Positions 550 to 25,326 of a DNA stretch of 64,000 bases are shown here, one piece after another. Below the pieces are notes generated by a model. It saw only the letters and a program-made list of their open reading frames with translations, had not been told where the DNA came from and did no database searches. Numbering within the stretch: the stretch's first letter is position 1; every line of letters begins with the position of its first letter. The DNA comes from a virus. Taxonomy: Duplodnaviria; Caudoviricetes. The position numbers were made by a program, and so were the translations under genes. The stretch spans positions 64,001 through 128,000 of the IMG/VR virus record IMGVR_UViG_3300017780_003104; one strand, 5' to 3'.

Positions 550-780
550 ATGATAACGATAGAGAAGAAAAATGGTGAAGTTGTTGAGATGACAACAGAT
601 GAATTCAGCAGATGGATGTGTTTAGCTGAAGCATTCTACTTCATTGAAGAAAAAGCAAATGAACTTAAAATAGATGTATCAGATTTATTGAAACCTTTAG
701 CCATTGATGGATATATAAAGGAACGATTTGATGCAATGCGTCATGATATTGGTTGTGAGTTGGCACTTGGTAATCTATAA
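550..780 (+). CDS. Hypothetical protein
   Basis: 76-aa ORF directly downstream of a conserved box promoter. Confidence 0.7.
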   Translation: MITIEKKNGEVVEMTTDEFSRWMCLAEAFYFIEEKANELKIDVSDLLKPLAIDGYIKERFDAMRHDIGCELALGNL

Positions 781-1607
781 ATAGATTCCAATTCTAAATC
801 GATTGAACTTATGTAATCTTGTGTGATTACTGATTTAAACTCATTTAATAATTGGGTTTTATCTAAACCAAGCTCAGTAAACCCAATATAAAAGTTTCTA
901 AATCTTTCTTTTAAATTATTTGGATAAGTTGTACCATTCGGTCTTTCGAATTTATGCATCCATCGTAAAAATGGTAAGCATATTACTTTCTTACCATTTT
1001 TTCTATATTTTTCGTGGATATAGCCTTCCTCACCACCGAATCCTGTAAAATTCTTGTTGAAACCCAGCCAAGAATCAGTTCTACACGAAAAAAGACCCAT
1101 TCCTTGTGCTGGAATCTCAAATGGGGAGTCATCTATATTCATGCCCTTACCATCACTAGCCCATTTCCCCCACATATAACTCCCCCAATGACTTAAATCA
1201 AAATAAGTGCTGACGGTCTTATTATCATCGTATAATAATGGACCATGTAATAGATTTCCATCATCTTCACCAGATTCATAGTAATCTATTAATTTTTTCA
1301 AAGATCCCGGTTCAAGTAAAACGTGGGAATCGATACACATTGTATATGGAGTGTCTGATAATGCAAAAACTTTACCTTTTAGCATACTTGACTGGTAATT
1401 AACAAATGGAAGATACTGAATTGGCTCAGTTACCCAATTTAAAAGTTTTTTAACGGATTCGCCATGTTTACCAGTTGGATTATTATCAACTATTACAAAT
1501 TCGATATCATCCAACACTTCTTTATGATACATTCTAATCGATTGAATTGTAAAATAAAGTCCGTCAAAGTCATCGTGGGTTGCCACACCAATAGTAAGCT
1601 TTCTCAT
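741..1607 (-). CDS. Glycosyltransferase family 2 (GT-A fold)
   Basis: N-terminal LTIGVAT..D, FVIVDNN, DxH/DxD-like CIDSH, GMGLFS and GFGGEE motifs; TAAATA-N6-ATG upstream. Confidence 0.85.
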   Translation of the reverse strand: MRKLTIGVATHDDFDGLYFTIQSIRMYHKEVLDDIEFVIVDNNPTGKHGESVKKLLNWVTEPIQYLPFVNYQSSMLKGKVFALSDTPYTMCIDSHVLLEPGSLKKLIDYYESGEDDGNLLHGPLLYDDNKTVSTYFDLSHWGSYMWGKWASDGKGMNIDDSPFEIPAQGMGLFSCRTDSWLGFNKNFTGFGGEEGYIHEKYRKNGKKVICLPFLRWMHKFERPNGTTYPNNLKERFRNFYIGFTELGLDKTQLLNEFKSVITQDYISSIDLELESIYRLPSANSQPIS

Positions 1608-1619
1608 TGGTGATATTTA

Positions 1620-2483
1620 TTAAAATTTTAATGTTTTACAAGAATATAAACACACTGTGGTATTTGATGTAGTAGTGACCAGTGTTGGTGGTTGTGTGGT
1701 TGTTGTTTCTGGTGGTAATGTAGTGGTTACAGTTATATTTGAGAAATTATTCCCATCTCTCTCATTAGTATTGAATATTAAAGGTGTTGGAGAATTTGGT
1801 GATATCAGAATATTAGTTACATCATAGTTAGGCGAGACTATAAGCGTAGTTGGAACGGGCCAAGCACAACAATCCCTATCATCATCAATAGTCCCCCAGC
1901 TATCTTCACCTGATAATGGTATAGATGGGGTAGTAGTAGGACTATTAGGATCTATAGTTGTTGTAGTTGTTGTAGTGGGAGCTACAGTAGTAGTTGTAGT
2001 GGGAGCTACAGTAGTAGTTGTAGTGGGAGCTACAGTAGTAGTTGTAGTGGGAGCTACAGTAGTAGTTGTAGTGGGAGCTACAGTAGTAGTTGTAGTAGTT
2101 GTGGGTGAAGGAATCTTCAATACATTCCAAAGATCTATTAGATTTTTATCAAAGTCATATACAGAACTTAATGGGATTGCTGACCCCATTCCAAATGCTC
2201 CAAATTTAGTAATACTAAATTCGAGGGGGTAACGTCCACTCCTTCTTCCATTGCTCGCCATGAAATACATATTAGCAAGTGGAGGATCGAATATTGGAAC
2301 ATATGACGAACTTAATAATATATTACCACTGAGACTTGTACTTACATTATATACATAATGAGTGTCAGAATTAACTATGCTATTAATTACACCATCACTA
2401 CTAGATAATAAAGACGAAGCTGTTTGGGACCATCCAAAAGCTGATCCAGACGAAGTAGAAGTTTTGAATATACCAAATGCCAT
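1620..2483 (-). CDS. Thr/Pro-rich (mucin-like) putative virion protein
   Basis: (VAPTTTTT)x5 tract, CC pair, second Thr tract, C-terminal CLYSCKTLKF; located in tail-appendage operon. Confidence 0.7.
   Translation of the reverse strand: MAFGIFKTSTSSGSAFGWSQTASSLLSSSDGVINSIVNSDTHYVYNVSTSLSGNILLSSSYVPIFDPPLANMYFMASNGRRSGRYPLEFSITKFGAFGMGSAIPLSSVYDFDKNLIDLWNVLKIPSPTTTTTTTVAPTTTTTVAPTTTTTVAPTTTTTVAPTTTTTVAPTTTTTTTIDPNSPTTTPSIPLSGEDSWGTIDDDRDCCAWPVPTTLIVSPNYDVTNILISPNSPTPLIFNTNERDGNNFSNITVTTTLPPETTTTQPPTLVTTTSNTTVCLYSCKTLKF
1969..2088. repeat. Perfect 24-bp tandem repeat x5 (GTTGTAGTGGGAGCTACAGTAGTA)
   Basis: Read directly; encodes VAPTTTTT on the minus strand. Confidence 0.95.
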
Positions 2484-2486
2484 TAT

Positions 2487-3614
2487 TTAATATGGTGTTT
2501 CAACAAATAGTTGAGCCGTATTTTTAAATGATAGGACTTTATTTACTGGTATATTTACTGGTGTATCGTAATTAATCACATTGATAATTGAGGTTGTAGA
2601 ACCAGAAAAATATCCAAGTATTATTTGTGATATATCACTACCTCCAACAGTAACCAGTCCATATACGTTTGTATTAGCTGTTGAATTGTTGGTAATAGTT
2701 GGTAATCTATCAGATGTAATATCTAAAGCCGTAATGGTTTCAGTTGGGATATTACTGGCAGCTACGTATATAGTTGAGCTGTAAGGAATACCTGAAATTG
2801 ACGATACTTTGTTAGCATTATTCATTAGTAATATTCTATTTGGAATATTACTAGCTGTGCTTATATCTGTGGTTAAATGGAGAAATCTTTGGAGTGTTCC
2901 ACTCCCACTTAAACCTTGTATGTAATCATCATTTGTAAAGGGTCTAGGTATTCCAATGTCAATAGTAAATGTATTTTTAAAATCACGTATAATTAGAGAA
3001 TCTCCGATACTTAAAGTAATAGCTGGGGTTAGCATGATATAAGCACTAATACTTTGAGTCGGAGCGTATACGATAGTATTAATGGTTTGTGGGACAACTA
3101 CTGGGGCAAATAATCCAGATAACGATCTAGACACTGAACTAGGTGTTGTGGTTAGTGTATTTGAGAAAACTGCTGCTTGGTAAGAACCAGTAACCTCACC
3201 ACCATTAAATGGATTAGTTCCAGTTTTATTACGTATTAATTGTGATGGAGTTGTTACACTACCAGATAGAGATATCTGAATAGTGCTTAGATTTCTAACT
3301 AATACGTAAGCTTTTTCACCTGATGGGAATTGCACATGATCCCCAACATTCATACCAGATGCGCTATTGAATATCACATTACCAGTCTGTCTATATACTG
3401 TATTACCCGATAATGTATAAGTTCCAGTCAATAATTCACTTCCGAGTTGGTTGTGGGTCCAGAAGAGAGTATTATTGATACCCATATATATTTGGCGACC
3501 TGCATTAACTGCCCAACTAGACCATATATTATGTCTTTTACCATAATCAACTATAGTTCCATCCTTTTTTAATATCGCCAAATCGATAACTGCTCCTAAT
3601 ATTGGATCTTTCAT
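2487..3614 (-). CDS. Putative tail appendage/fibre protein (paralog A)
   Basis: Beta-rich S/T/G composition; N-terminus LGAVID..KKDGTIVDYGK.HN and C-terminus VETP shared with 3652-4803; TATAAATA-N7-ATG. Confidence 0.6.
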   Translation of the reverse strand: MKDPILGAVIDLAILKKDGTIVDYGKRHNIWSSWAVNAGRQIYMGINNTLFWTHNQLGSELLTGTYTLSGNTVYRQTGNVIFNSASGMNVGDHVQFPSGEKAYVLVRNLSTIQISLSGSVTTPSQLIRNKTGTNPFNGGEVTGSYQAAVFSNTLTTTPSSVSRSLSGLFAPVVVPQTINTIVYAPTQSISAYIMLTPAITLSIGDSLIIRDFKNTFTIDIGIPRPFTNDDYIQGLSGSGTLQRFLHLTTDISTASNIPNRILLMNNANKVSSISGIPYSSTIYVAASNIPTETITALDITSDRLPTITNNSTANTNVYGLVTVGGSDISQIILGYFSGSTTSIINVINYDTPVNIPVNKVLSFKNTAQLFVETPY

Positions 3615-3651
3615 ATATTCTTATTTATAATTAATGTTTATATAGTAAACC

Positions 3652-4803
3652 TTATGGAGTTTCAACGTCCAATTTTAAAGTTGAGTAAATAGTTAAGTTT
3701 CTACTACCCGCTGCTATTGCTATTGGTGTATCATATTCGATTATACATGATATTACGGGTGGTACTGATGCATCACCGACCAATATTTGTTTAATTGGAG
3801 TTGCATCAGATGTGAATGCTCCAAATGCACTTAATAGACTGGTTGCATTATAGTCAATATCAGCTAGGTTATTTCTGGTGGTTGTGCTTATTGTATATTT
3901 CGCAGTCACACTTGGTCTATATGTGGTGGATCGCATCGCTGATAAAAATGGTACTTTATTTGCATCAGTTAGTAGATAAATTCTAGTATTGACCCCAGTA
4001 TGTCCTGTGCCAAGAGAGTATTCATCTCTATCATATGGAATGGTTCGTTGCATTTTACCAGATCCCACCAATCCAGTTATGGGTGATACCGCAAATACTC
4101 TCGGAGCGTCTACATTAAATGTTATTGAATACTGGTAGTCTGGTATCACAAGAGCATCACCCACATCCAACCTTATAGGTGGAACGATATCTATATACCC
4201 TCCATGGAAACTAGTATCATGATATGTTATTCGATATATATCATATGTCGAGAATGTCGGTGGGAATTGGGCAGATAAATTTACACTATATATTCCAGAT
4301 GTGCTTAATGAGGTATAATATGGATCAGTAGTAATTACACCTAGGTTTGTTTGCTTCACTAAAGTATTCGATGTCATATTAATTCCATATCCAACGGATT
4401 CTGTTTTGTGTAATCGAACTATCGAACTTGGTTCAGATCCAGTTACACTAATAGGACAAGATGAGAATGTTGTCGTTCCAGTAGTTTTGTAACATTTAAA
4501 ACCAGATGGGAATTCGAACAACGACCCATTGGGGATAGTTAAAAGTGATACGGGGTTGATACCATATAATATTTTGCCTGTTACATAGTAAGTTCCAGAT
4601 AATGTCGAGGAACCATACCCAAGATCATCGGTGTTATCATATGTTGAGAAGGTTCTAGGGTCAGACATGTAAAGTCTTCTCCATGTTAAACCCTTATTCA
4701 CTAATCCCCCCAATACGTTATGGTATTTTCCATAATTCACCAATGATCCATCATTTTTTATGACAGATATATCTATAACCGCTCCTAATTTCGCATTATT
4801 CAT
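3652..4803 (-). CDS. Putative tail appendage/fibre protein (paralog B)
   Basis: N-terminus LGAVID..KNDGSLVNYGK.HN, C-terminus VETP; paralog of 2487-3614. Confidence 0.6.
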   Translation of the reverse strand: MNNAKLGAVIDISVIKNDGSLVNYGKYHNVLGGLVNKGLTWRRLYMSDPRTFSTYDNTDDLGYGSSTLSGTYYVTGKILYGINPVSLLTIPNGSLFEFPSGFKCYKTTGTTTFSSCPISVTGSEPSSIVRLHKTESVGYGINMTSNTLVKQTNLGVITTDPYYTSLSTSGIYSVNLSAQFPPTFSTYDIYRITYHDTSFHGGYIDIVPPIRLDVGDALVIPDYQYSITFNVDAPRVFAVSPITGLVGSGKMQRTIPYDRDEYSLGTGHTGVNTRIYLLTDANKVPFLSAMRSTTYRPSVTAKYTISTTTRNNLADIDYNATSLLSAFGAFTSDATPIKQILVGDASVPPVISCIIEYDTPIAIAAGSRNLTIYSTLKLDVETP

Positions 4804-4810
4804 CTTATAA

Positions 4811-5389
4811 TTATGTCAATCTTCCAGCTAAGTTCCATATTGCTCCAGTATTATCACTCAAGGAATCGAATATAACATCACCCATAATACCAGATAATCC
4901 ATATACCATACCAGAAGTATCAGTCTCTGTCACATCATATGTATTCCCCATAATACCAGATAATCCATATACCATACCAGAAGTATCAGTTAATATAATA
5001 TCGGATTCGTTTTGACCAACTCCATATAATGTCCCATTTTGCGGGGATTCTAAAACTAATGAAAATACATGAGTGCTACTAACTCCCAAATAGGCTGATG
5101 AGGATTTACCACTATCAAAGTATTGAGAAGACCCATTACCCATAACATACCCACTAATACTATGAGTTGCACTATTTGGATAAGACCCACTGGTACCAGT
5201 TTTTAAACATATCGAATTTGCAGTCGCATTTCCCCAAACTGGGAACCACATAAAGTTATGTAAAGACCATCTACCAGATACTTTCTCGGCAAAAATGAAA
5301 TAATCAATGGCACTTATTTTAAATTCTGGAACCGCTGATCCCATAGCACTTTCAATTGCAGCTACATATATGAGAGTTTCGGGTTCCAT
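4811..5389 (-). CDS. Putative virion protein, lectin-like N-terminal region plus duplicated C-terminal peptide
   Basis: FPVWGNATANSICLK..GNGSSQYFDSG resembles a beta-sandwich module recalled from aquatic phage tail proteins; TDTSGMVYGLSGIMG occurs twice. Confidence 0.55.
   Translation of the reverse strand: MEPETLIYVAAIESAMGSAVPEFKISAIDYFIFAEKVSGRWSLHNFMWFPVWGNATANSICLKTGTSGSYPNSATHSISGYVMGNGSSQYFDSGKSSSAYLGVSSTHVFSLVLESPQNGTLYGVGQNESDIILTDTSGMVYGLSGIMGNTYDVTETDTSGMVYGLSGIMGDVIFDSLSDNTGAIWNLAGRLT
4881..4990. repeat. 44-bp exact direct repeat, period 66 bp
   Basis: CCCATAATACCAGATAATCCATATACCATACCAGAAGTATCAGT at 4881-4924 and 4947-4990. Confidence 0.9.
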
Positions 5390-5391
5390 TT

Positions 5392-6591
5392 TTAGAATTT
5401 AAGTTTTTCACATCCATCATCACACTTTATTATAGTGGTTGTTGTGGTTGTAGTGGTTGTAGTGGTTGTAGTTGTCGTAGTTGTCGGTGCTAATGTAGTT
5501 ATGATAGGTTTAAACTTATCAATATTTAATGGTGGGTTGGTTGATATCAACTGAGGATTAGATAACTGGGATTTTGGTAATATATATTTTGGATATTCTG
5601 TATTATATTCTGGAACTCTTTTAGAGCATGGGCATGCTATATTAGTAGGTTCTGGTGTTGTTGTTGTAGTAGTAGTAGGTTCTGGTGTTGTTGTTATTGT
5701 TGTTATTGGTGTAGGATCTACTATACAAATTTTATTAATCCAAAGATTACCTTGTGGGACGTAATGAGTTCTCTGATATAGTCCCGTATAGGTCCATATA
5801 GCACTTATATGATTATTGGTGAAAACTTCGCTTTCACCATATAGAGTTTCATTGAAGGATGGTAATACTATAATGGTTGGTGTTGGTATTGGTGCTGGGT
5901 TAACGTTTTGTAACACATAGTCATAAGATATATTTGCTAATACGAACCCCACTCCAACAGTCCTTTCAATTAATTCATCCCCATAAGAAGGGTTATATAC
6001 ATCACCTTTATATAAGCTTATTGTAGGCCCCAAACTCCTATACCAAGTTTCATCTGGTTTTGGAAATCCTCCCTCAGTGTTTTCTGGTACGAATGTAATT
6101 TCAACATAGTGTGGAGATGAGATCACTCCACTAACAGATCTTGCATAGTACAATATCGGGTAATCATCTAGTATATTGACAGTAACTGGTAATCTAACTT
6201 CAATATAATTTGGGTTAAACACCTCCCAACCCAACCCAACCCCAACAGTTTGAGTGATGGTAACATCTCCTAAATTATAAGTGTGACCAGCAGTAACATG
6301 TATTGATGGATCTGTAGGTATAAGAAATTGATACTCATTATTAATACCATCAATATTAAGTAGATCGTATGTCCCATCGGCGCAATACTTAACACCTTCC
6401 ACTGTTATCGTTGTATTCTCAATGGTATCGTCATAACCAAGTGCAACTTGGCCATCTATAGCCACAGTCATGATAGACATTTCACCATTAAGATAGCTAA
6501 TATCTGTAGATATAAATGATCGAATAACCCCATAATTACAATAATGGTAATCTTTTGGATCTGGGTATTGTATACTAGGATCTGTTGGCAT
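5392..6591 (-). CDS. Thr/Pro-rich (mucin-like) putative virion protein
   Basis: Two Thr tracts, CPC motif, C-terminal CDDGCEKLKF; N-region similar to 6595-7773 (TTITVEGVKY..DG vs TTIDVVGTKY..DG). Confidence 0.7.
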   Translation of the reverse strand: MPTDPSIQYPDPKDYHYCNYGVIRSFISTDISYLNGEMSIMTVAIDGQVALGYDDTIENTTITVEGVKYCADGTYDLLNIDGINNEYQFLIPTDPSIHVTAGHTYNLGDVTITQTVGVGLGWEVFNPNYIEVRLPVTVNILDDYPILYYARSVSGVISSPHYVEITFVPENTEGGFPKPDETWYRSLGPTISLYKGDVYNPSYGDELIERTVGVGFVLANISYDYVLQNVNPAPIPTPTIIVLPSFNETLYGESEVFTNNHISAIWTYTGLYQRTHYVPQGNLWINKICIVDPTPITTITTTPEPTTTTTTTPEPTNIACPCSKRVPEYNTEYPKYILPKSQLSNPQLISTNPPLNIDKFKPIITTLAPTTTTTTTTTTTTTTTTTIIKCDDGCEKLKF

Positions 6592-6594
6592 AAT

Positions 6595-7773
6595 TTAAAA
6601 CTTTAAAACTTTACAATTATTTAAACATTCGGTAGTTGGTATTAGGGTTGTGGTGGTTGTGGTGGTTGTAGTGGTTGTAGTTGGCTTTAGTGTAGTTGTT
6701 ACGATTATACCCGTATATATCTGTTTCTGGGGAGGATTATTTAAATTTATAATGGGTTGATCAATATATATTGAGTTATCGAATTTAAAATTTGGATTTC
6801 CAGATGGTGTCGATGGAACCTCTGGTAAACATACCTCACAAGGACCAGATGATGGGGAGGGTGTAGTAGTGGTAGTAGTGGTAGTAGTAGTAGTTGGTAT
6901 TGGGGTGGTACCAATAGGCGGAATAACATCACAATTCACCGTCATATCACCAACCGAACATGCAAATCTTGAATGATTATATATTGGTAGCCCTTGTGGT
7001 GGTTGTACATCCCATCCAAGATCACCTTCACCATATACATGAATATATATGGTGTAAGGTAAGTATACTTGCTTAGTTAAATATCCATCGGGCCTAGCTC
7101 CTTCAATGTCTACTTGATTTGTATACGGTATAGTTACCCTAACTGTTGTATTAGTGGTTTCACATGGATGTAATGATTTTAGATTAATCGATTGTAAAGT
7201 TCCTTCGGGGTCATCTAGTAAACCCCCCGAATGGCTAAAAATTACAAAAGATGATGTTCCGCCTATTGTTGGGGTTATCGTCGCTTCCTCTACTAATTCT
7301 GCCGCATAATTATTGTAAGAACTACCAAATGTTGGATTATTATTATTAATATTTCCAGATATTGTCATGACAATATACACAAGATATTCAACTCTATCGT
7401 ATTTTGCACCACCATTGAATCCTTCGCCGAATTCATCGCCAAGGTAGTACTCGTAATCATGATCCGGTAGAGGTATACTGGTTGTGGTTGGCGGATTTAG
7501 TGGTGTATTTACACCATAATCTGTTTTATATATCCAGTAGTTAAATCCTCCGTATATAAGATTAAGAGAATTTATTAATCCATCCCTTATATATTTCGTA
7601 CCTACTACATCTATCGTGGTGTCGGTATGGGGGCCATATAAGGGATCACCGGGAGCTACACATGGTTCAGATGTGAATGCTGTGATGCGCTGGTCTATTA
7701 ATGCATTATAATTTCCATCAGTTGGGTGGAGCCAACTAACTTCGGGTCTATGCACTATAAATGTCGAAGGCAT
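6595..7773 (-). CDS. Thr/Pro-rich (mucin-like) putative virion protein
   Basis: Two Thr tracts, CEVC motif, C-terminal CLNNCKVLKF. Confidence 0.7.
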   Translation of the reverse strand: MPSTFIVHRPEVSWLHPTDGNYNALIDQRITAFTSEPCVAPGDPLYGPHTDTTIDVVGTKYIRDGLINSLNLIYGGFNYWIYKTDYGVNTPLNPPTTTSIPLPDHDYEYYLGDEFGEGFNGGAKYDRVEYLVYIVMTISGNINNNNPTFGSSYNNYAAELVEEATITPTIGGTSSFVIFSHSGGLLDDPEGTLQSINLKSLHPCETTNTTVRVTIPYTNQVDIEGARPDGYLTKQVYLPYTIYIHVYGEGDLGWDVQPPQGLPIYNHSRFACSVGDMTVNCDVIPPIGTTPIPTTTTTTTTTTTPSPSSGPCEVCLPEVPSTPSGNPNFKFDNSIYIDQPIINLNNPPQKQIYTGIIVTTTLKPTTTTTTTTTTTTLIPTTECLNNCKVLKF

Positions 7774-8472
7774 TTACACTGGATTTGCTGTTATACCAGA
7801 TATTGTGGTATATTGATTAATTATATACGAACTTAGCGGTATATATGGAATCGTCTCATACGTTGGGGCTATTATACCTCCTTGAGCATGGAAATCTTTA
7901 ACGAACATAGTCGATGGAGTTACAACAGTATTAATCGGGGAGCAGAATGTGAATCCGGGGTGAAGTGGAAGACTTAAATTTGGCGAAGTTAACGCCACAC
8001 TGGTCAATGTTATATAATTGGATGTTCCAACCCTATAATCGACAGATATTTTCTTTCCACCATTAGTATATCTAAATCTGAGAGTCTGGAATGTTTTATC
8101 TGGTTGTGTTAATATAAAATCTTTAGATAATGATGATAGAGACTCATTTAAAATGACTTCATTGCTAGAATTTCTTATAATTAAGGCATTTTGCTTAATT
8201 GCACTTAGAGCAACACCCGGATGCGGACCTATTGGTAGAGCAAACCTGCCAGTTGTATCAAAAGCAACTGCAAATATACCATTTGGCACGTTTGTATTAC
8301 TATAATAACCTAGTGAATCACCCCCAACGCACGATAATGCGGTGTTACTTAGACTTAAAAATGATGTAAATCCATGTTCCTCACCAGATAATGAGAATGT
8401 GAAACTCCATGCTATATCCCAATGTGGATTATAGTCGTATTTACTGTCTAAAAATCCATATAATTTATCCAT
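7774..8472 (-). CDS. L-type (legume/ConA-like) lectin domain protein
   Basis: HGFTSFL and FAVAFDTTG match the DG-F-F and AVEFDT motifs of legume-lectin folds. Confidence 0.6.
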   Translation of the reverse strand: MDKLYGFLDSKYDYNPHWDIAWSFTFSLSGEEHGFTSFLSLSNTALSCVGGDSLGYYSNTNVPNGIFAVAFDTTGRFALPIGPHPGVALSAIKQNALIIRNSSNEVILNESLSSLSKDFILTQPDKTFQTLRFRYTNGGKKISVDYRVGTSNYITLTSVALTSPNLSLPLHPGFTFCSPINTVVTPSTMFVKDFHAQGGIIAPTYETIPYIPLSSYIINQYTTISGITANPV

Positions 8473-8473
8473 T

Positions 8474-9559
8474 TTAGAAATCTATGGTTAGGCATATATT
8501 AGCATTTTTAGTCACACCAGAAGAATTTATAACTTTAATTTCACATGATGATAGATCTGTTGCCGTCACTCTGGCCGAACAATCCAAGGCATCAGAACCA
8601 ACTATAGTAGCCATTGGGATATAATTAGTAGTTATAGGGAGGAATGTGACTTTATAATGACCAGTGGCTAGTGTTGAGTAACTTATAACATGTCTACTAA
8701 ATACACCACCTCCAGATAATGCATTATACTTAAATAAAAGTTTACTACTACGAATGGTTACATTATTAGTTAATGTTGAGATTTCTGTCCCAGTTGATGT
8801 TAATCCGTTAACCAATGAATATAATCCATGTTCGATAGTGACAGTTTTATCTGATACGAGACTTGCAGGAATATTACCCAAAGCAATCTTCCCATTTTGG
8901 ATATATAACGGTGATGATAGAGCATCTTGGGATATACTATAAGAAGATAATGGATTTAGTGCTATTTTTCCACCAATAACTGATAGGGGTGAGGTTACTG
9001 CGCTATTCGATATATAACCAGCAGGAATACTACCCAATACTATCTTACCATTTTGGATATATAAAGGTGCTGAAAGGGCATCTTGTGATATGCTATAAGC
9101 CGATAATGGATTTAGTGCTATTCTTCCACCACTAACTGATAGGGGTGAGGTTAATAAATCCTGAGATATTGAATTGGCTGATAATGGATTTAAAACTATA
9201 GAATTAGCTGATGATATGGATATGAAACGAGAACCACTATATGATCCCCCAATTGATTTCCAATCACTGATAGTTGCACCATTATTAGCCGATAAAACAT
9301 ATAATGTATTATGTTGAGATGAAAATCCAAAGTCTCCAATAATTGCGGGTTGGATCGCAGAATCCGTTATCAATGGTGATATACCTTTGAACTTATTTCC
9401 TGCGATAACACCACCAACGGTGTAACCATTACCCACAAATAATCGTTCTTGATCTGTTGTAAACCCTAATTCCCCCGAATCTAGGGTAATTTGAGTTCGA
9501 TCAAAATTCGAACCTTGACGAACCTTTAATTTAATAATTGAATTGTTTAAAATTTCCAT
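8474..9559 (-). CDS. Tail fibre protein with Mtd_N/hyaluronidase-N-like domain
   Basis: IKLKVRQG...LDSGELGFTTDQERLFVGNG..GG; internal repeats of about 26/52 aa. Confidence 0.7.
   Translation of the reverse strand: MEILNNSIIKLKVRQGSNFDRTQITLDSGELGFTTDQERLFVGNGYTVGGVIAGNKFKGISPLITDSAIQPAIIGDFGFSSQHNTLYVLSANNGATISDWKSIGGSYSGSRFISISSANSIVLNPLSANSISQDLLTSPLSVSGGRIALNPLSAYSISQDALSAPLYIQNGKIVLGSIPAGYISNSAVTSPLSVIGGKIALNPLSSYSISQDALSSPLYIQNGKIALGNIPASLVSDKTVTIEHGLYSLVNGLTSTGTEISTLTNNVTIRSSKLLFKYNALSGGGVFSRHVISYSTLATGHYKVTFLPITTNYIPMATIVGSDALDCSARVTATDLSSCEIKVINSSGVTKNANICLTIDF
8850..9195. repeat. Degenerate internal repeat, period 156 bp (boundaries approximate)
   Basis: GATAATGGATTTAGTGCTAT(T/C)TTCCACCA starts at 8946 and 9102. 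Confidence 0.75.
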
Positions 9560-9565
9560 AATATA

Positions 9566-10864: not shown

Positions 10865-10879
10865 ATTGAATATATCTAA

Positions 10880-11542: not shown

Positions 11543-11571
11543 TGTTTTTATTTAGTTTAAGAACTGTTTTT

Positions 11572-13362: not shown

Positions 13363-15635
13363 TTATAATTTTCGAAAGTTACGGTATTTATGATAGTCGT
13401 TGATGGGAGAAATGATGCTTCATCATTTCTTATATGTTGTTCGATATTATTTTTCATATCGGGTGTTGCATTATATAGATTCTTCAATACTATATTTATA
13501 CTATTCGTTTTGAAGGTGGAATTACTACATATTTGTTGAATCGACTCAACATTATCAGTGCTATTTCTAGTACCAGATGGTAGAGTTAGGTATAATGCAT
13601 CAACTTTCGTATTACCGTTTAAAATTGGATATATTGCAGTCGCATCCAATGGAATATATGTATTCTTTAATACAATATTATCAAATCCGTCTGGTGTGTA
13701 TAATGTGATATTAATCGGTTTATCATCATTTTTATAATAATAGAAATCTCCATATAATATATTTTTATTTATATACTTATATGGCGTAACAGTGAATGTA
13801 TATATTAATGTAGTGTTTAAGTATACATACCCAATTCCATTATAACCATCAAATGAAATTGATATAAAATTAGTTTTTAGGGATTTTATAGATGCCGTAG
13901 TTGTGAATGTATCTATTTGTAAATCTGGATATAATGGATCGAATATAATATATTCAAATGATAATAACTCTCCATTTTTAATTATAGTTACACCACATGG
14001 TATTTCATTTCTATTACTTTGGACTTTCCATGATGTGTCATCTCCTTCAAAATAGAAAGATAGTGTGAATTTACTAGTATCATTAATTGATTCGAAAAAA
14101 TTACTAGGATATGTTAATTCATCCTCGGTCCTACAAATAGTATTTGGTATATTTGTTACGGAATTTTCAGATATTCTTTGATATTTATATTTTCTATTTG
14201 GTGAAAATGCTAAATCACTTCGTTTATCAAAAAATTTAGTTTGTGTTATACTGGATGAAATTCCTAAATTTCCATCTATTATAGATTCGATATAAGAATC
14301 TAATGGAGATTTAATATACATCGAGTATGCTTGCATAGCTTCTTCTTTTTCTATTAGATCTGGATAATAATATCTATCAACCCATGATATCTCTTTAGTA
14401 TCTGGATTTCTATATAGCCAAGTGCATAATAAGTGTTGATTATTATTTAAATGTGTTGAATTTTCATCTAATTTATATATTTTATCGGCATATTCTGGTG
14501 TATAATATGGGAATGCGCCAGCTTCTATAAATTTACAATCATTTATATTTATTTTAGAAAATGGATACATATTAGATGGAGTTTCAATTATATTATCACC
14601 TTCAAATATTTTATATGTTTGATTTGCGAAAGAATAATTCAATTCTAATTCATCGGATGCTTCCTTTTTAATATTTTGAAATATTGAAGTATAGTTTCTA
14701 AAGTTATCCACAAATGTAGTGTAAGTATTTCCAGATAATAATATATTTGAATTTGAAAAAGTGTCCAATGGAGTTAATTGATTTTTCAATACTATAATAT
14801 CAGTTAAATAACTATCATCTGAGTATTTCCTATGTAATAGATAGTTATTCTTTAGGTTAAATTCACTTTTATCTACATCGATGGTGTTATTATTATTATA
14901 TGTTATAAATGATGTATTGAGTAATGTATCTGGTGTCGTATATACATTTCTAGAGATTTGAAATGGATTTGAAATATAATCACTAGTATTTGAGACTAAT
15001 ATTAGTGTTGAATTATTTTTAATTAACGTGTAATTGCCTATGTTAGTCGATTTAAAAAATAATATTTTATTAGATGATTCAGAAAATAAATATGTGAAAT
15101 CTTGTGGATTTATATATTCTTCATCGAAAGATAATTTAAATTCATTTATGAAAATTATCTTGTTATCAATGTCGGAAGCCAAGTAATATGTAATATTATT
15201 TGAGGATTTATAGTATATTCTACATTTATTATCATCTAATAATTCTATATTAAATTTTATATCAGATGGGGTATTGGTGAAAATGGGTACCCCATAATTT
15301 TTAGAATCTCTAATATCCCCCTTTAATACATATGGAGTGATATCAATTTTGGAAAAATTTAAATAATAATTACCAATTATTATATCTGTGATTATATTTG
15401 TCGCTTTAAATCTTTCGGATAAAAGAGGAAATATATCGGAGAATAGGTAATTATTAGTTAGATAGAAATTACTATAGTTATTAACTTTAAAATCCTTTGA
15501 ATTGGATAAACATAATGGGAAATTCAAAGTGTAGTTTCCAAAATTTCTCTCAAATTGTAAAAAGTTAACGCCATCCACCGTAGATTGTAAAGTGGGTGAT
15601 GTTAATGCGGATAATGGATATTCTACGGAAGTCAC
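13359..15635 (-). CDS. Putative virion structural protein (possible LamG-like C-terminal half)
   Basis: 758 aa; GTG start with TAAATA-N5; beta-rich C-terminus (FTLSFYF...FISISFDG...VYLN). Confidence 0.5.
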   Translation of the reverse strand: MTSVEYPLSALTSPTLQSTVDGVNFLQFERNFGNYTLNFPLCLSNSKDFKVNNYSNFYLTNNYLFSDIFPLLSERFKATNIITDIIIGNYYLNFSKIDITPYVLKGDIRDSKNYGVPIFTNTPSDIKFNIELLDDNKCRIYYKSSNNITYYLASDIDNKIIFINEFKLSFDEEYINPQDFTYLFSESSNKILFFKSTNIGNYTLIKNNSTLILVSNTSDYISNPFQISRNVYTTPDTLLNTSFITYNNNNTIDVDKSEFNLKNNYLLHRKYSDDSYLTDIIVLKNQLTPLDTFSNSNILLSGNTYTTFVDNFRNYTSIFQNIKKEASDELELNYSFANQTYKIFEGDNIIETPSNMYPFSKININDCKFIEAGAFPYYTPEYADKIYKLDENSTHLNNNQHLLCTWLYRNPDTKEISWVDRYYYPDLIEKEEAMQAYSMYIKSPLDSYIESIIDGNLGISSSITQTKFFDKRSDLAFSPNRKYKYQRISENSVTNIPNTICRTEDELTYPSNFFESINDTSKFTLSFYFEGDDTSWKVQSNRNEIPCGVTIIKNGELLSFEYIIFDPLYPDLQIDTFTTTASIKSLKTNFISISFDGYNGIGYVYLNTTLIYTFTVTPYKYINKNILYGDFYYYKNDDKPINITLYTPDGFDNIVLKNTYIPLDATAIYPILNGNTKVDALYLTLPSGTRNSTDNVESIQQICSNSTFKTNSINIVLKNLYNATPDMKNNIEQHIRNDEASFLPSTTIINTVTFENYK

Positions 15636-15643
15636 AATATTAT

Positions 15644-16147
15644 TTAATTACCACTACGAAGTTCCAAGATTGTATTATCTACAAATGTTGATAATTGGTA
15701 TTCTTTTGGGTTCCCTTCCATTGGTAATATGTTGACATTATTCAATTGTAAATCACCAATGGACTCAAAGAAGTCATAAGTTCTAACTGATACTGGTAGT
15801 TTAAACCAAGAATAATCACCATTTGAATAACTTATATATAATTGCACATATAAATTTTTATATAATGATGTAGACGATGGATATATTTTTGTAGAATATA
15901 TTGTATTTAATACTGTATTATTATTCGCTATATTCACATTACTTGCTGTAGTCGTTGTATATACATCATTATCATAAAGTATTGGTAAACCATCTCCCCA
16001 ATCTATTTTGATAAAAATCGGAATTATATTAGAATATATACCTGAAATGTTCAATGATAATTCAGTGAAATCATCTAAATCTATTTGAGGTAGAGTTTGA
16101 ATAATATTCGAAGATGCCGAGGATATCGATACGGTGTAAGTATTCAT
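15644..16147 (-). CDS. Putative structural protein, PKD/Ig-like
   Basis: IKIDWGDG motif typical of PKD-like domains. Confidence 0.5.
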   Translation of the reverse strand: MNTYTVSISSASSNIIQTLPQIDLDDFTELSLNISGIYSNIIPIFIKIDWGDGLPILYDNDVYTTTTASNVNIANNNTVLNTIYSTKIYPSSTSLYKNLYVQLYISYSNGDYSWFKLPVSVRTYDFFESIGDLQLNNVNILPMEGNPKEYQLSTFVDNTILELRSGN

Positions 16148-18846
16148 AAAATTAATTCAGTATCTAAATAAGAAACCGATTGAGATAGAGTGGATTTTAT
16201 ATTTATTGGTATAATATTATCAAATATTGAGGTGAATGATACACCTCCGAAATTATAACTTTTTTTAGTGATGAATGTTGGATCTGGTGCTAGGTAATAA
16301 TCTAGAGTATGTAGTTGTGCTACAAAGTTTTGATCTTTCAATAAGTATGATATGCTATATACATCATTTTTACTATTATGAGTTAAGATAACATCTGATG
16401 CAGTTATATACCTAATATCCCCACCCGATACACCGAAAAAGTCAGTGATATTTTCGGGTGTTCTGGTATATATTATATTATTTGATAAATTTGCTGGATT
16501 GAATTTATAAATAATTGGGTATACATAGAAGTCGGTTGGGCTTTGTCCGGGAATGTATGCAATTTTGCAATAGGTTATTATATTATCAACCTTTAATCTA
16601 TTTGATATATGATCGAAGTCATTTTGATTATGTGTTATATAATTTAAACTGGTTTTTGGGTCTGCGTATACACCATTGCTATATATGATTTTATCAAATG
16701 TTAGATAATTATCAGTTTCGATCATCAGAATATCATTCACTATTTCAAATCGATTGATCGAAGTTTCCAATTCTGATTTTATATATTCTGAATATCTAGA
16801 ATTTAAAAATTCTAGAGAATCTAATAATGGTGCTATAGTTCTAGTTGTATTATTTCTAATCATCAGAACACTACCTTCTTGAAATTTCTCTAATGGTGAT
16901 AACTCAGTATATTCGACAAAACTATCATCATATGCATATTCTGAATAATAATCAACTGATGTATCGAATGGAACTCCAAATTTTTCACCATCTACATAAT
17001 TAATAATATCTCTATCATAATCAATAAAGGTTGCAGATAGTTGTGGGTATAGTGGATCTAATAATGCACGTTGGGTAGTGTTATATATACCACCTTCTAT
17101 TAAATCAGTATAGTAGAAGGTTCCAACAGACATTTCAAAAGCAGATAAATCCGAGGATATCGCATCTGGATATATATCATTGGTAGGGGTTGTTATAAAC
17201 CCACCTTCTAGTATTTCATATATCGTAACTAATTCATCAGATGTTGGGGTAATTGGTTGTGGATATTGTATAAATTCCGCTCCAGCAAAACTACCAAACT
17301 TTCCAAAAAATAAAGTATCAGTGGCAATAGATGATAGATTATACCCACTTACGGTAACACCAGTTCTTACAATTTCCGAATATGTGGAATAGTCCTCAAT
17401 ATCATAGTCAAACGAAAACCCACTATTATATAGATCATCATAAAATTTATATCCATCGAATATGATATTGGATTTTATTGTTGAAGATATATCGACATTG
17501 ATTGATTCCGGGGAATATATAACACCATGATCATCACTGTTTTTAAATAACCCATAGAGATTTCCATATACATCACATTTAGAATCTGAGATAATTCCGA
17601 AGTTACTCATACTATCTAAATATTTGTTATAATTTAAATCAATTTTAGATACATATCCGTAATATTTTGAATCATATTCGGATGTGGTAGGTTCATTTAT
17701 AGCATTTCCTGAAGAGGCATTCTTCTTCAGGTATGCATCATCGACATTGAATATTAGAACATCGCCATTAACTCCAATTATACTTGGATCTGGGAAGAAA
17801 TATAGAGAATTTGGTAGTAGATTATCGTAATTAAACTCAAAATTCTTTTGCAGCCCATCTAAAACGACAATTGATACTTTAGATGGTCTAAAAAATCCAT
17901 GATCTCTATGAGTTGTAAAATATTCGGTCTGTCCAGTAGATGCTGTTGTTGGATGATATCTATTTACAAAATTTAGAATCCCATTATCAACTTCAAATAA
18001 TTTACCAGATAATATATCAGTGACGGATGATCCGGTTGAAAGGAAATAATAATCAGTATATAGATATTTTTCTGTTAGTTTTCTCTTATTTTCAAATAAA
18101 AGATCAACTTCTTTAATACTCTTTAAAGTATCTGAAAATCCTGAAAATACATCTTCTATAAGATCAACATCATCTCTCAAGAAAATATTAAGTCCGTAGT
18201 CTAAATCTTTATTATCATTGATTGTATCATTTGATGGTTGATCGAAATATGTTGGATATGTGTCATATAATTCATCAATATCGACTGAGAATTTTGTCAA
18301 TACCTCGTCAAAATCGATCAACATTTTACTATCATCTAATGTTTTTAGGTATGCTAGTGATAGATCGTAAATTGTTTTAATCGACCCATAATTTGATCCA
18401 ATAAGTTTATTTCTAATATTACTAAATTTTATAGTAGATCTTCGTTCATTATAATAAGAACATAAATCAATCAACTTTTTACTATAAAACCCTAATATCA
18501 CATCCAGATCGAGGGGATCATTAAAATCTACATTGCTTAAGAATTTCTTTTCTTCTAGAGTAGAATATTGAATAATTATATCTTGTATAAATTCTCTATA
18601 TTTTTCAATTATTAAATCTTGCTCATTTACTTTTTTAGATAGATTTAAAGAATTCCAACTCTTCACATATGTATTGTAATAGTTTTGGAGGGTATCTGGA
18701 TCGAAGGATACAATTATCAATTTTATAAATTGTAAAAATGACATTGGAGATGCAACATCTAAAGCATTATGTCGATCAACACTAGGATTAGTTATTGATT
18801 TCGGAACATCTGGGAATCCTAATTGTAATGATAGTGACAATGCCAT
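16144..18846 (-). CDS. Large putative baseplate/virion protein
   Basis: 900 aa, first gene of the minus-strand structural operon; TAAATA-N7-ATG. Confidence 0.5.
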   Translation of the reverse strand: MALSLSLQLGFPDVPKSITNPSVDRHNALDVASPMSFLQFIKLIIVSFDPDTLQNYYNTYVKSWNSLNLSKKVNEQDLIIEKYREFIQDIIIQYSTLEEKKFLSNVDFNDPLDLDVILGFYSKKLIDLCSYYNERRSTIKFSNIRNKLIGSNYGSIKTIYDLSLAYLKTLDDSKMLIDFDEVLTKFSVDIDELYDTYPTYFDQPSNDTINDNKDLDYGLNIFLRDDVDLIEDVFSGFSDTLKSIKEVDLLFENKRKLTEKYLYTDYYFLSTGSSVTDILSGKLFEVDNGILNFVNRYHPTTASTGQTEYFTTHRDHGFFRPSKVSIVVLDGLQKNFEFNYDNLLPNSLYFFPDPSIIGVNGDVLIFNVDDAYLKKNASSGNAINEPTTSEYDSKYYGYVSKIDLNYNKYLDSMSNFGIISDSKCDVYGNLYGLFKNSDDHGVIYSPESINVDISSTIKSNIIFDGYKFYDDLYNSGFSFDYDIEDYSTYSEIVRTGVTVSGYNLSSIATDTLFFGKFGSFAGAEFIQYPQPITPTSDELVTIYEILEGGFITTPTNDIYPDAISSDLSAFEMSVGTFYYTDLIEGGIYNTTQRALLDPLYPQLSATFIDYDRDIINYVDGEKFGVPFDTSVDYYSEYAYDDSFVEYTELSPLEKFQEGSVLMIRNNTTRTIAPLLDSLEFLNSRYSEYIKSELETSINRFEIVNDILMIETDNYLTFDKIIYSNGVYADPKTSLNYITHNQNDFDHISNRLKVDNIITYCKIAYIPGQSPTDFYVYPIIYKFNPANLSNNIIYTRTPENITDFFGVSGGDIRYITASDVILTHNSKNDVYSISYLLKDQNFVAQLHTLDYYLAPDPTFITKKSYNFGGVSFTSIFDNIIPINIKSTLSQSVSYLDTELIL

Positions 18847-18933
18847 TTGATATTATTTATATCAAAGATCTGAATATCGTTTGGATATGAAATTATTTAG
18901 TTGAAAAACAACAATTTGGAGTAAATACGATAA

Positions 18934-19146
18934 ATGAATACTAAATTGTTTAAAAAGCTAAGGGATAAAGAGGAAAAATTATTAGACATCATCTATGAAA
19001 TTCAAGAATTACTGGATTCAACTGAAGATGAAGAGCTTTCTTCAATGGGGGTCGAATTTTGTGAAATAATGGTCGACTTCATACATTCCAATGATACAGT
19101 ATCTTTAAATGACATCAAAGAATTCATCGAAGAAAATATATCGTAA
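18934..19146 (+). CDS. Small acidic hypothetical protein
   Basis: 70-aa ORF; TAAATA-N6-ATG. Confidence 0.65.
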   Translation: MNTKLFKKLRDKEEKLLDIIYEIQELLDSTEDEELSSMGVEFCEIMVDFIHSNDTVSLNDIKEFIEENIS

Positions 19147-20020
19147 TATTTTAATATTAGGTAAGGGATATATAGGTGCTGAATTGGCTAACTTTTTATC
19201 AAAAGTCCAAGATATTAAAATATTCCATATTTCTAGGTCTGATATAGATTATCATAATATCGATATTATGAGAAAGTATATATTAAACAATGAAATCAGA
19301 TATGCAATAAATTGTTCGGGCTTTACTGGTAGACCTAATGTTGATGAAGGGGAAATTAAATCTGAAGAATGCTGGAATTTAAATGTGGTAGTCCCATTAA
19401 GACTCTCCATATTAATGGAGTCTATGGGTGTTAAATATACTCATATTAGCAGTGGCTGTATATATACTGGATATGAAAGGATTTATACGGAGACAGACGC
19501 TCCAAATTTTGGAATGTTTGATATCAGTAGCTTTTATAGTAAAAGTAAACACGCATTCGAAACCTTAGTTAAGGATATCAATATCAAAATATTAAGAATT
19601 AGAATGCCCATATGCTACAATTTAAATAATCCTAGAAATTATCTAAAGAAAATAATGGAATATCCAAATTTGATCGATTATAGAAATTCTAAAACTCTTA
19701 TACCTGAATTATGTATGTTCATTCAATCATTATTGACTGACCAAAAAACTGAGTGGTATAATGGATGTGACATTTACAATGTTGTCAATCCAGATCCATT
19801 GACAACTATGGAGGTTGTGGACCATTTAAATTATATGAACGAGGAAAATTGGAAGATGTTGAATCCTAATTGGGTAAAGATTGAAGATTTATCTATAGTG
19901 GCTCCTAGAAGTAACTGTATATTAGATAATACGAAAGCTGATAACATATTCAAACTTAGTCCAGAGAAAATAGCAATGAATAAAGTCTGCAACTATAACA
20001 ACGGGATTCAGGGAATATGA
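19109..20020 (+). CDS. NDP-4-keto-6-deoxyglucose reductase (RmlD-like; resembles bifunctional 3,5-epimerase/4-reductase)
   Basis: Rossmann GKGYIG, NCSGFTGRPNVDEGE, HISSGCIY and catalytic YSKSK motifs. Confidence 0.8.
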   Translation: MTSKNSSKKIYRNILILGKGYIGAELANFLSKVQDIKIFHISRSDIDYHNIDIMRKYILNNEIRYAINCSGFTGRPNVDEGEIKSEECWNLNVVVPLRLSILMESMGVKYTHISSGCIYTGYERIYTETDAPNFGMFDISSFYSKSKHAFETLVKDINIKILRIRMPICYNLNNPRNYLKKIMEYPNLIDYRNSKTLIPELCMFIQSLLTDQKTEWYNGCDIYNVVNPDPLTTMEVVDHLNYMNEENWKMLNPNWVKIEDLSIVAPRSNCILDNTKADNIFKLSPEKIAMNKVCNYNNGIQGI

Positions 20021-20751
20021 AAGGTATTATTCTTAGCGGTGGGCGTGGATCAAGGTTATTCCCATTAACATATGGGATTTCGAAGCAATTACTTCCGGTA
20101 TATAAACAACCCATGGTTTTTTATCCACTCAAAACTCTTATCGATATGGGTATCCATGAAGTTTTGATTATTGTCGCCTCAAAACTTCAAAAACAATTAT
20201 TTTTTGAATATTTGGGTGATGGATCTAAGTTTGGAGTTAAATTAGAGTATATCATACAAGAAAATCCAAATGGATTGGCCGAGGCATTTATAATAGGTGA
20301 AAAATTCATAGGTGGTGATGATGTCACTTTGATTTTGGGCGATAATGTATTTTTAACGAATAAAAAAATCGAAACTCAACAAAATGCTATCTTCACATAT
20401 AAAGTAAAAAACCCATCAGATTATGGTGTCATAAAACATGACGAACACGGAAACATTGAGAAGATCATCGAGAAGCCGACAGAATTTGTAAGTAATGACG
20501 CTGTAGTTGGGCTTTATGTGTTTTCAAACATGGCTATTAGCCTAGCCAAAAAGGTTAAACCATCTAAGCGTGGGGAATTGGAAATTGTAGATCTGATAAT
20601 GTTGATGGATATGTATGAGGGTGTATACTCTCAAGAATTTGATGGGGTGTGGTTTGATTGTGGAACACATGATGATTTATTAGAGTGTTCGGAGTTCGTT
20701 CGCGCTCTTGACAAGAGAACGACCCGTGATATATTTCTAAAAGAAATATGA
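20017..20751 (+). CDS. rmlA: Glucose-1-phosphate thymidylyltransferase
   Basis: MKGIILSGGRGSRLFPLT..SKQLLPVYKQPM, GLAEAF, LGDN, EKP, RGELEI and WFDCGT motifs. Confidence 0.95.
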   Translation: MKGIILSGGRGSRLFPLTYGISKQLLPVYKQPMVFYPLKTLIDMGIHEVLIIVASKLQKQLFFEYLGDGSKFGVKLEYIIQENPNGLAEAFIIGEKFIGGDDVTLILGDNVFLTNKKIETQQNAIFTYKVKNPSDYGVIKHDEHGNIEKIIEKPTEFVSNDAVVGLYVFSNMAISLAKKVKPSKRGELEIVDLIMLMDMYEGVYSQEFDGVWFDCGTHDDLLECSEFVRALDKRTTRDIFLKEI

Positions 20752-25314: not shown

Positions 25315-25326
25315 TTAAATATAACT

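Follow-up and report, generated by a model that had tools for sequence, protein, structure and literature searches.

A predicted mucin-type protein O-glycosylation module in the late fiber operon of a T4-like phage

Introduction

The polypeptide N-acetylgalactosaminyltransferases (ppGalNAc-Ts) of animals and apicomplexans constitute family GT27 of CAZy and include GalNAc-T1, human GalNAc-T2, and Toxoplasma GalNAc-T3; the animal enzymes initiate mucin glycosylation. Enzymes of GT27 bind Mn2+ through a DXH motif and a distal His, which in Toxoplasma GalNAc-T3 (TgGalNAc-T3) are D276-S277-H278 and H414, and TgGalNAc-T3 glycosylates Thr stretches (PMC11074326). Here, we describe a 64,000-nucleotide (nt) stretch of phage DNA (the window), bases 64001-128000 of the virus record IMGVR_UViG_3300017780_003104, in which a gene for a glycosyltransferase of ppGalNAc-T-like predicted fold, called GT2 below, closes an operon that also encodes three proteins with long Thr tracts. 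The record is 211,724 bp long with direct terminal repeats and is rated complete by CheckV. Like GT27 enzymes, GT2 has Asp-Ser-His at the DxD position and a distal invariant His, and its gene neighbors encode mucin-like Thr-tract proteins. Unlike GT27 enzymes, it has no ricin-type lectin domain, signal anchor, or secretory pathway, and the bacterial cytoplasm is its presumed site of action. On balance, we favor the view that the locus encodes a phage mucin-type protein O-glycosylation module, as judged from sequence and predicted structure.

In the mycobacteriophages Che8, Corndog, and Myrna, capsid and tail-tube subunits carry glycans at their C-termini (Freeman et al. 2023, as cited in PMC12619734). 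These systems resemble the present one in that glycosyltransferases encoded by the phage have been proposed, or shown, to modify its structural proteins inside the host cytoplasm; here, such decoration is predicted. Unlike in the mycobacteriophages, no capsid or tube protein of this phage has a Thr tract, and runs of five or more Thr occur only in the fiber operon. The putative acceptors are instead dedicated mucin-like proteins with a four-Cys C-terminal module, the enzyme resembles ppGalNAc-Ts, and aquatic bacteria serve as hosts.

The wall-teichoic-acid N-acetylglucosaminyltransferases (GlcNAc-transferases) TarP and TarS, of family GT2, are a further point of comparison. They share with the phage enzyme an N-terminal GT-A half that is detectable by sequence, and TarP is also phage-borne. 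Unlike the phage enzyme, TarP has a DxD rather than a DxH motif, a trimerization domain, and a polyol-phosphate acceptor.

GT2 has a ppGalNAc-T-like predicted fold and metal site

741-1607, minus strand: GT2, soluble 288-amino acid (aa) GT-A glycosyltransferase (PF00535, AlphaFold2 model, fold comparison)
1614-1619, minus strand: TAAATA late-type box, 6 nt ahead of the GT2 ATG and directly past the stop codon of the preceding gene

GT2 passes the PF00535 (Glycos_transf_2) profile with 29.7 bits against a gathering threshold of 23.3, over residues 6-121. An AlphaFold2 model built on 19 homologues has a predicted local distance difference test score (pLDDT) of 87 and a predicted template modeling score (pTM) of 0.87. 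When this model was compared to the PDB with Foldseek, the top 49 matches were all ppGalNAc-Ts (E ~1e-13). The VIA aligner, which is independent of Foldseek, was run against 48,161 representative chains and ranked mouse GalNAc-T1 (8v9q) first, with a Z of 21.8 over 262 residues and a root-mean-square deviation of 3.4, and TgGalNAc-T3 (8uhv) second, with a Z of 21.4. The ppGalNAc-Ts are thus the best fold match, covering 255-262 of the 288 GT2 residues. The next families are ~4 Z units lower: K4CP (17.7), WrtF (17.6), RmlT (17.3), and TarP (15.3, as against 21.8 for the top match). As modeled, the catalytic domain is most similar to GT27 structures.

Among 19 aligned family sequences, D93, H95, F190-G191, E193-E194, and H218 do not vary, and G192 hardly does. 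The alignment of GT2 with TarP places D93-S94-H95 on the TarP DxD motif. By sequence, D93-S94-H95 and H218 fit the DXH motif and distal His that characterize GT27. The FGGEE segment presumably resembles the WGGEN "Gal/GalNAc-T motif". From its predicted fold and active site, GT2 would be expected to work like a ppGalNAc-T. No transmembrane (TM) segment was found in GT2 (maximum 19-residue hydropathy of 0.91) or in its putative acceptors. Since it consists of the catalytic domain alone, without a lectin domain or membrane anchor, GT2 falls outside GT27 on architecture.

Several observations weigh against so close a comparison. Every GT-A enzyme scores a Z above 12 against the GT2 model, the fold evidence depends on a predicted structure, and GT2 is only 14-17% identical to the GalNAc-Ts in structural alignments. 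Moreover, a profile search of PDB sequences (E<=1) returned TarP (E 2e-4, N-terminal 114 aa) and TarS only, and no GT27 enzyme. A complex prediction of GT2 with the last 45 residues of the acceptors gave a score of 0.00, with a partner pLDDT below 40, a result that speaks neither for nor against the pairing.

The match to TarP bears on an alternative in which the Thr tracts are flexible, unglycosylated fiber linkers and GT2 targets other Ser/Thr sites of the fibers or a glycopolymer of the host envelope. In the TarP-like version, modification of the host glycopolymer would block superinfection or alter receptors. TarP is a prophage-encoded teichoic-acid GlcNAc-transferase, and RmlT, TarS, and WrtF are all among the fold matches of GT2. 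Such targets are less easily reconciled with a fold that is closest to protein O-GalNAc-transferases by ~4 Z units, with an enzyme that has no membrane segment, or with a GT2 gene that sits under a late box in the structural operon of a lytic-type phage.

The Thr-tract proteins share a C-terminal module

6595-7773, minus strand: Thr-tract protein 1, 392 aa; T11 and T12 runs; CEVC at residues 312-315; tag CLNNCKVLKF
5392-6591, minus strand: Thr-tract protein 2, 399 aa; T7 and T17 runs; CPC at residues 320-322; tag CDDGCEKLKF
1620-2483, minus strand: Thr-tract protein 3, 287 aa, 22% Thr; CC at residues 205-206; tag CLYSCKTLKF

Runs of at least five Thr occur in just three of the 557 open reading frames (ORFs) of at least 60 aa in the genome, and all three are in the fiber operon. 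In Thr-tract protein 3, residues 128-176 consist of five to six VAPTTTTT units, a segment whose DNA is a 24-nt tandem repeat (5.6 copies, 99% identity). The gene for this protein ends 12 nt before GT2 starts. The original prediction had set a GT2 gene with its own late promoter beside three Thr-tract proteins, and the PF00535 domain, the T runs, and the TAAATA box were all located.

The N-terminal domains of the three proteins are unrelated, while their last ~80 residues can be aligned. This C-terminal module is composed of, in order, an S/T tract, a Cys pair (CC, CPC, or CEVC), a Pro-rich stretch, poly-Thr, and a tag of the form C-x3-C-[KE]-x-L-K-F. Only 3 of 1063 genome ORFs end in this tag, namely those of the three poly-Thr proteins, none of which lies more than 6.2 kb from GT2. 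Among 58 distinct tagged proteins of related phages, the upstream Cys pair lies ~70 residues ahead of the tag in 36, and the most frequent number of Cys residues per protein is exactly four.

GT2 and Thr tracts co-occur in related phages

7774-8472, minus strand: conserved 232-aa protein, L-type (legume) lectin fold (AlphaFold2 pLDDT 80; VIA alignment)

The GT2 family comprises 1,593 proteins in a 90%-clustered database and is present on at least 544 viral contigs. Viral neighborhoods were counted in the best 80 loci that hold family members. The ORF directly upstream of GT2 has a run of at least four Thr in 62 of 79 loci, compared to 25 of 1016 other ORFs, so the co-occurrence across related phages that had been proposed holds as a statistical association with exceptions. 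In ~68 of the 79 loci, this upstream ORF, which ranges from 74 to 2027 aa, ends in the tag. Most of the loci that appear to lack an adjacent Thr-run gene still have a Thr-rich ORF nearby, even where GT2 is inverted.

Two further tests approached the pairing from other genes. A reciprocal search with a DNA pattern for CNKLGF-stop found 11 genuine tagged ORFs, 9 of which have GT2 12 nt downstream. The lectin-fold gene was then used as an anchor for loci with and without GT2. After clustering at 60% identity, mucin tracts were found in 14 of 16 GT2-positive clusters vs 3 of 8 GT2-negative ones.

The pairing is not absolute. GT2 is found without a nearby Thr-tract gene in L147/L154 and in the L170 group. 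Conversely, the L184 group encodes a 1176-aa protein of 27% Thr with no GT2 within 9 kb, and tagged giant proteins without GT2 within 9 kb occur in L156, L159, L160, and L161. In addition, the viral loci share descent, and some of the adjacency is therefore synteny that they have inherited. In some relatives, the acceptors consist almost wholly of S/T tracts and lack any evident domain for binding to the virion. Because these exceptions are real, the link between GT2 and Thr tracts is strong yet statistical. For the linker or envelope alternative, the two lineages with GT2 and no adjacent Thr gene, and the Thr-rich fibers without GT2, are points in its favor; against it, GT2 tightly adjoins Thr-tract genes across very different architectures.

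In one lineage, giant fiber proteins of up to ~1800 aa end in CDDEEDC[ND]KLGF (L096, L113, L156, and L159-L161). A strict dependence of the C-terminal tag on GT2 was considered and rejected, since these giants occur without GT2 in the contig (the contigs being fragments) or within 9 kb. Tagged giant fiber ORFs are located as follows.

L096, 11171-14476: tagged giant fiber ORF
L113, 1-1470: tagged giant fiber ORF
L160, 9822-15155: tagged giant fiber ORF
L161, 9822-15263: tagged giant fiber ORF

A convergent gene on the other side of GT2 (68-523, plus strand) encodes a 151-aa protein with one TM helix and a CxC...CxxC motif, and adjoins GT2 in 70 of 80 related loci. A locus search with this protein alone found nothing, and alignment of the lectin-fold gene was used as the anchor instead.

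Bacterial relatives of GT2 adjoin poly-Thr proteins

An exhaustive profile search returned 1,931 cluster representatives (50% identity) of the glycosyltransferase clade in the protein library. The top matches are mostly bacterial proteins of 400-1350 aa. The bacterial glycosyltransferase domain and residues 3-277 of the phage enzyme share 48% identity, and relatives are 43-51% identical across the whole of the phage GT2. In these proteins the domain is fused to PqqD, GT25, GT10, sulfotransferase, methyltransferase, or HPr-kinase-like domains. PqqD is the peptide-binding element of pathways for peptides that are made on the ribosome and modified after translation (RiPPs).

The genes for the bacterial enzymes adjoin genes for small proteins composed of a leader and poly-Thr/Pro, such as one that contains "...TTTVAPTTTPAPTTTPAPTTT". 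In a sediment bacterium, the directly upstream gene encodes a 101-aa protein ending in "...GTTTTGLPTTTVAPTTTPAPTTTPAPTTTVPVT", and the same arrangement of enzyme and poly-Thr protein is found in three more bacterial contexts that differ in GC content. A GT2 relative is carried by 269 bacterial species genomes, among them the cultured Oricola indica, Yoonia tamlensis, Desulfofustis glycolicus, and Bradyrhizobium. In 32 of 77 bacterial loci, the enzyme gene has a Thr-rich ORF on its own strand no more than 700 nt away, compared to 15 of 2273 among ORFs farther off. The precursor type that recurs has a twin-arginine-like leader (RRxxLK), a hydrophobic stretch, W-x-K-P-V-V..P-A-H-A, and then poly-Thr/Pro. 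Precursors come from several bacterial phyla and at times occur as tandem copies. Leader/poly-Thr loci are listed here.

L194, 3228-3533: bacterial leader/poly-Thr locus
L197, 2-145: bacterial leader/poly-Thr locus
L199, 3005-3862: bacterial leader/poly-Thr locus
L200, 470-1183: bacterial leader/poly-Thr locus
L226, 2158-2896: bacterial leader/poly-Thr locus
L258, 2385-2898: bacterial leader/poly-Thr locus
L277, 2710-2934: bacterial leader/poly-Thr locus
L279, 2140-2905: bacterial leader/poly-Thr locus

The bacterial and phage systems thus have in common the glycosyltransferase clade and the Thr-tract proteins encoded next door. Unlike the phage GT2, the bacterial enzymes carry peptide-binding and extra transferase domains, and their presumed substrates are small proteins with a twin-arginine-like leader that ends in PAHA before the poly-Thr; the phage acceptors have the C-terminal Cys tag instead. 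The bacterial loci share no synteny with the phage locus and are for that reason the best evidence that the Thr tract is the acceptor of the clade. Judged by its genes, the bacterial arrangement looks like a seemingly undescribed system for leader-guided glycosylation and export of poly-Thr proteins.

The bacterial homologues are PqqD-fused and lie beside poly-Thr precursors. A host-envelope target agrees poorly with these fusions, with the fold, and with the pairing of the genes, and we regard the linker or envelope alternative as improbable. By sequence context and modeled fold, GT2 probably acts on Thr tracts.

Modification of phage DNA by GT2, as performed by T4 glucosyltransferases and DNA-hypermodifying glycosyltransferases, would be another function. 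Glycosyltransferases of phages often modify DNA (cited in PMC12619734). The phage also has T4-like replication genes. DNA glycosylation is nonetheless unlikely because no thymidylate-synthase or dCMP-hydroxymethylase family gene was found in the complete genome. Together with the late position of GT2 in a structural operon, its fold closest to protein glycosyltransferases, and the peptide-modification contexts of the bacterial homologues, this makes a DNA target very improbable indeed.

The late operon and a probable virion role for the Thr-tract proteins

18854-18861, minus strand: late promoter box at the operon head, exact TATAAATA, 7 nt ahead of the ATG at 18846
11572-18846, minus strand: four operon genes (596, 758, 167, and 900 aa) without a family match, kept upstream of the fiber genes in relatives
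10880-11542, minus strand: protein with a baseplate Gp10 C-terminal domain (PF21939, 66.1 bits; PHROG tail and tail-fiber families)
8474-10864, minus strand: two fiber-like proteins (361 and 432 aa) with Mtd_N N-terminal domains (PF18454, 28.1 and 24.9 bits)
4811-5389, minus strand: 192-aa protein in a variable slot, family not recognized
2487-4803, minus strand: two tandem paralogues (375 and 383 aa; 32% identical) between Thr-tract genes, no Pfam or PHROG match

GT2 is the last gene of a 15-gene operon on the minus strand that runs from 18846 down to 741. In the window, TAAATA is positioned 5-7 nt ahead of the start codon of 19 of 78 genes, where ~0.23 would be expected. The genes with a positioned box include gp25, the tail sheath, several fiber genes, and GT2. 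From their sequence and placement, these TATAAATA-like boxes just upstream of late genes are predicted T4-type late promoters.

The 232-aa lectin-fold protein has VIA Z scores of 14.3 to 7exo, 14.2 to peanut lectin, and 13.9 to ERGIC-53, and in relatives its gene sits immediately upstream of the mucin-like gene or genes. As modeled, this protein could be a binder of glycans of the host, or perhaps of the Thr tracts that the phage itself glycosylates. The variable slot here comprises six genes, among them the tandem paralogues and the 192-aa protein; most relatives have one or two genes in it.

In the proposed mechanism, the small, soluble GT-A enzyme, with its ppGalNAc-T fold and Asp-x-His...His metal site, would work in the host cytoplasm late in infection and would add the first sugar to the Thr tracts of the three co-transcribed proteins. 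From their operon context, these proteins are most likely tail or baseplate appendages, and the virion would therefore carry glycan-brush filaments. The context consists of the late boxes, the baseplate and fiber neighbors, the lectin-fold protein, and the fiber-sized tagged proteins of marine relatives. On these grounds, it is rather likely that the glycosylated products are virion parts.

Alternatively, GT2 may glycosylate the Thr proteins to yield products that are not virion parts, such as decoys released at lysis, matrix or aggregation factors, or proteins with an intracellular role. In many relatives, the acceptor is 113-270 aa long and 35-44% Thr, with no N-terminal folded domain, and the bacterial counterparts resemble small proteins exported by the twin-arginine translocation (Tat) pathway rather than structural subunits. 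The N-terminal domains here also have no recognizable virion fold: ESM Atlas models of two of the Thr proteins were of low confidence and gave no usable match, which counts against a structural role. However, the Thr genes lie inside the late operon, between the baseplate and fiber genes and the operon end, the tagged protein of marine relatives is fiber-sized (1000-2000 aa), and the conserved four-Cys module could be an attachment domain. A non-virion role is thus unlikely, though less so than the linker or envelope alternative.

A possible native prokaryotic system

A literature search, in which few subscription journals were covered, found no description of a ppGalNAc-T-like enzyme with dedicated phage mucin-like proteins, nor of the bacterial PqqD-glycosyltransferase/poly-Thr system. 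To our knowledge, glycosylation of phage virions has been shown only in a few mycobacteriophages, on different acceptors.

A broader reading can be offered only tentatively, as the odds are somewhat against it. Mucin-type O-glycosylation, with a GT27-like initiator and poly-Thr scaffolds, would be a native prokaryotic system, common to bacteria of at least eight phylum- or class-level groups and to T4-like phages of aquatic origin that form a large group. On the bacterial side, Tat-leader poly-Thr proteins would receive their sugars from a PqqD-guided multi-transferase before export. The phages would have acquired the catalytic domain alone and made glycan-brush appendages with it, with acceptors marked by the four-Cys module and partnered with the conserved L-type lectin-fold protein.

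If this is true, mucin-type glycosylation gains a prokaryotic and viral counterpart, possibly an ancestor. If the favored reading of the phage locus is confirmed, abundant aquatic phages would display mucin-like glycoprotein filaments, with consequences for adsorption, stickiness, grazing, and recognition by immune or defense systems. A 288-aa soluble glycosyltransferase for Thr tracts would then also be of use in glyco-engineering, and the origin of mucin-type glycosylation would become testable in tractable bacteria.

Sugar-nucleotide genes and the donor

18922-18927, plus strand: divergent TAAATA box, 6 nt ahead of a 70-aa ORF (18934-19146)
19109-20020, plus strand: NAD-dependent sugar reductase/epimerase, weakly RmlD-like, YxxxK motif (PF04321, 52 bits)
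20017-20751, plus strand: sugar-1-phosphate nucleotidylyltransferase, RmlA-like (PF00483, 190.6 bits)
20708-20735, plus strand: sigma-70-like near-consensus promoter, TTGACA-16-TATATT with TG, in the 3' end of the RmlA-like gene
genome 25200-26183, outside the window: RmlB-like gene (TIGR01181, 298.5 bits vs a cut-off of 365.1)
L003, 6262-15353 (genome 23262-32353; cluster ~23-34 kb), outside the window: sugar island

The original prediction also proposed that rhamnose or another 6-deoxyhexose is supplied from deoxythymidine diphosphate (dTDP)-sugar genes under the divergent late promoter. The box at 18922 is real and precedes the 70-aa ORF, while the RmlD label was generous: the reductase scores 57 bits against the 224 of the TIGR01214 equivalog cut-off, a generic short-chain reductase match. 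The RmlA-like protein scores 250 bits in TIGR01207, below its equivalog cut-off of 360.65, and rmlA is still its best NCBIfam family. Because the late-type box precedes the small upstream ORF, late expression of the rml pair is plausible. The sigma-70-like promoter lies 13 nt ahead of the start of the gp44 clamp-loader gene, which overlaps the 3' end of the RmlA-like gene. Since gp44 has this strong promoter inside the RmlA-like gene, the rml pair need not share early expression with it.

The 4,6-dehydratase (RmlB step) was correctly said to be absent from the window, and a search of the rest of the genome was advised; the RmlB-like gene lies outside the window, at 25200-26183. It is part of the sugar island, which also encodes an RfbH-type 3-dehydratase (480 bits, above the cut-off), a split pair of thiamine pyrophosphate (TPP)-dependent E1-like proteins, two more short-chain dehydrogenase/reductase enzymes, a 532-aa DUF5672 protein, and two GT2-like genes. 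By its gene content, the island suggests the synthesis and transfer of an unusual deoxy or branched sugar.

With its RmlA-like and RmlB-like genes, the phage resembles carriers of the RmlABCD pathway. It differs from them in that RmlC (PF00908, E<=0.1) was not found in the complete genome, a match present in 11 of 14 control genomes and a point against the sugar supply as first proposed, and in that the RmlD match is far below its cut-off. The dTDP-L-rhamnose pathway is thus incomplete, with an RmlB-like gene and no RmlC found in the genome. The absence of a detected RmlC makes L-rhamnose unlikely, and as the named sugar it was rejected. The clustering of RmlB with an RfbH-type 3-dehydratase and TPP enzymes indicates a different deoxy or branched sugar, and another 6-deoxy, 3,6-dideoxy, or branched sugar is more plausible than L-rhamnose.

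Whether any such sugar reaches GT2 is a separate matter. Of five large relatives, four retain the reductase/RmlA pair and three the RmlB-like gene. A complete 202-kb relative (G005) has no RmlA-, RmlB-, or RmlD-like genes, which also tells against the proposed supply; it retains GT2 and a tagged 172-aa mucin-like protein. The rml genes are thus dispensable for the GT2-mucin pair in relatives. Because they are missing from G005, and RmlC was not found here, the sugar pathway is not tied to GT2. The original link to rhamnose and dTDP-sugars is not supported as stated, with no RmlC, a generic "RmlD", and a GT2-mucin pair that persists without rml genes. The other part of the original prediction, glycosylation of the Thr proteins by GT2, gains from the co-occurrence, the ppGalNAc-T-like fold and metal motif, and the bacterial pairs.

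It is about an even chance that the RmlA-like/reductase pair and the RmlB/RfbH/TPP/glycosyltransferase island form a separate pathway that does not serve GT2 and that might instead remodel a host surface polysaccharide or make another glycoconjugate. This possibility competes with the dTDP-sugar part of the proposal alone. The reductase/RmlA pair is 17.5 kb from GT2 on the opposite strand, the RmlB/RfbH island sits among non-structural genes, and G005 has the GT2 and mucin genes without rml-like genes. In addition, ppGalNAc-T-like enzymes use uridine diphosphate (UDP)-sugars (PMC11074326). On the other side, a late-type TAAATA box stands ahead of the small ORF that leads the rml pair, the 4 of 5 large relatives that retain the pair also have GT2, and the extra glycosyltransferases could extend a glycan that GT2 initiates. 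If the two are connected, the RmlA-like and reductase genes and the RmlB/RfbH island elsewhere in the genome may supply sugar for the glycan or lengthen it. That a dTDP-sugar is the donor is doubtful.

Phage setting

The phage, which is uncultured, has T4-like replication and morphogenesis genes, including the gp44 clamp loader, gp25, the tail sheath, and a T4-type terminase. Cultured phages are only remotely related to it, with clamp loaders that are at most 40% identical to its own. Megablast of 21 kb and tblastn of GT2 against cultured phages gave no match, and PHROGs had no match for GT2, the Thr proteins, or the neighbors at 2487-10864. A 3.6-kb contig (L201; JAYVIK010000200.1) that was binned into a Flavobacterium metagenome-assembled genome carries a GT2 that is 68% identical to the phage GT2. 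This contig is probably a phage fragment, and its binning gives a faint hint of the host group.

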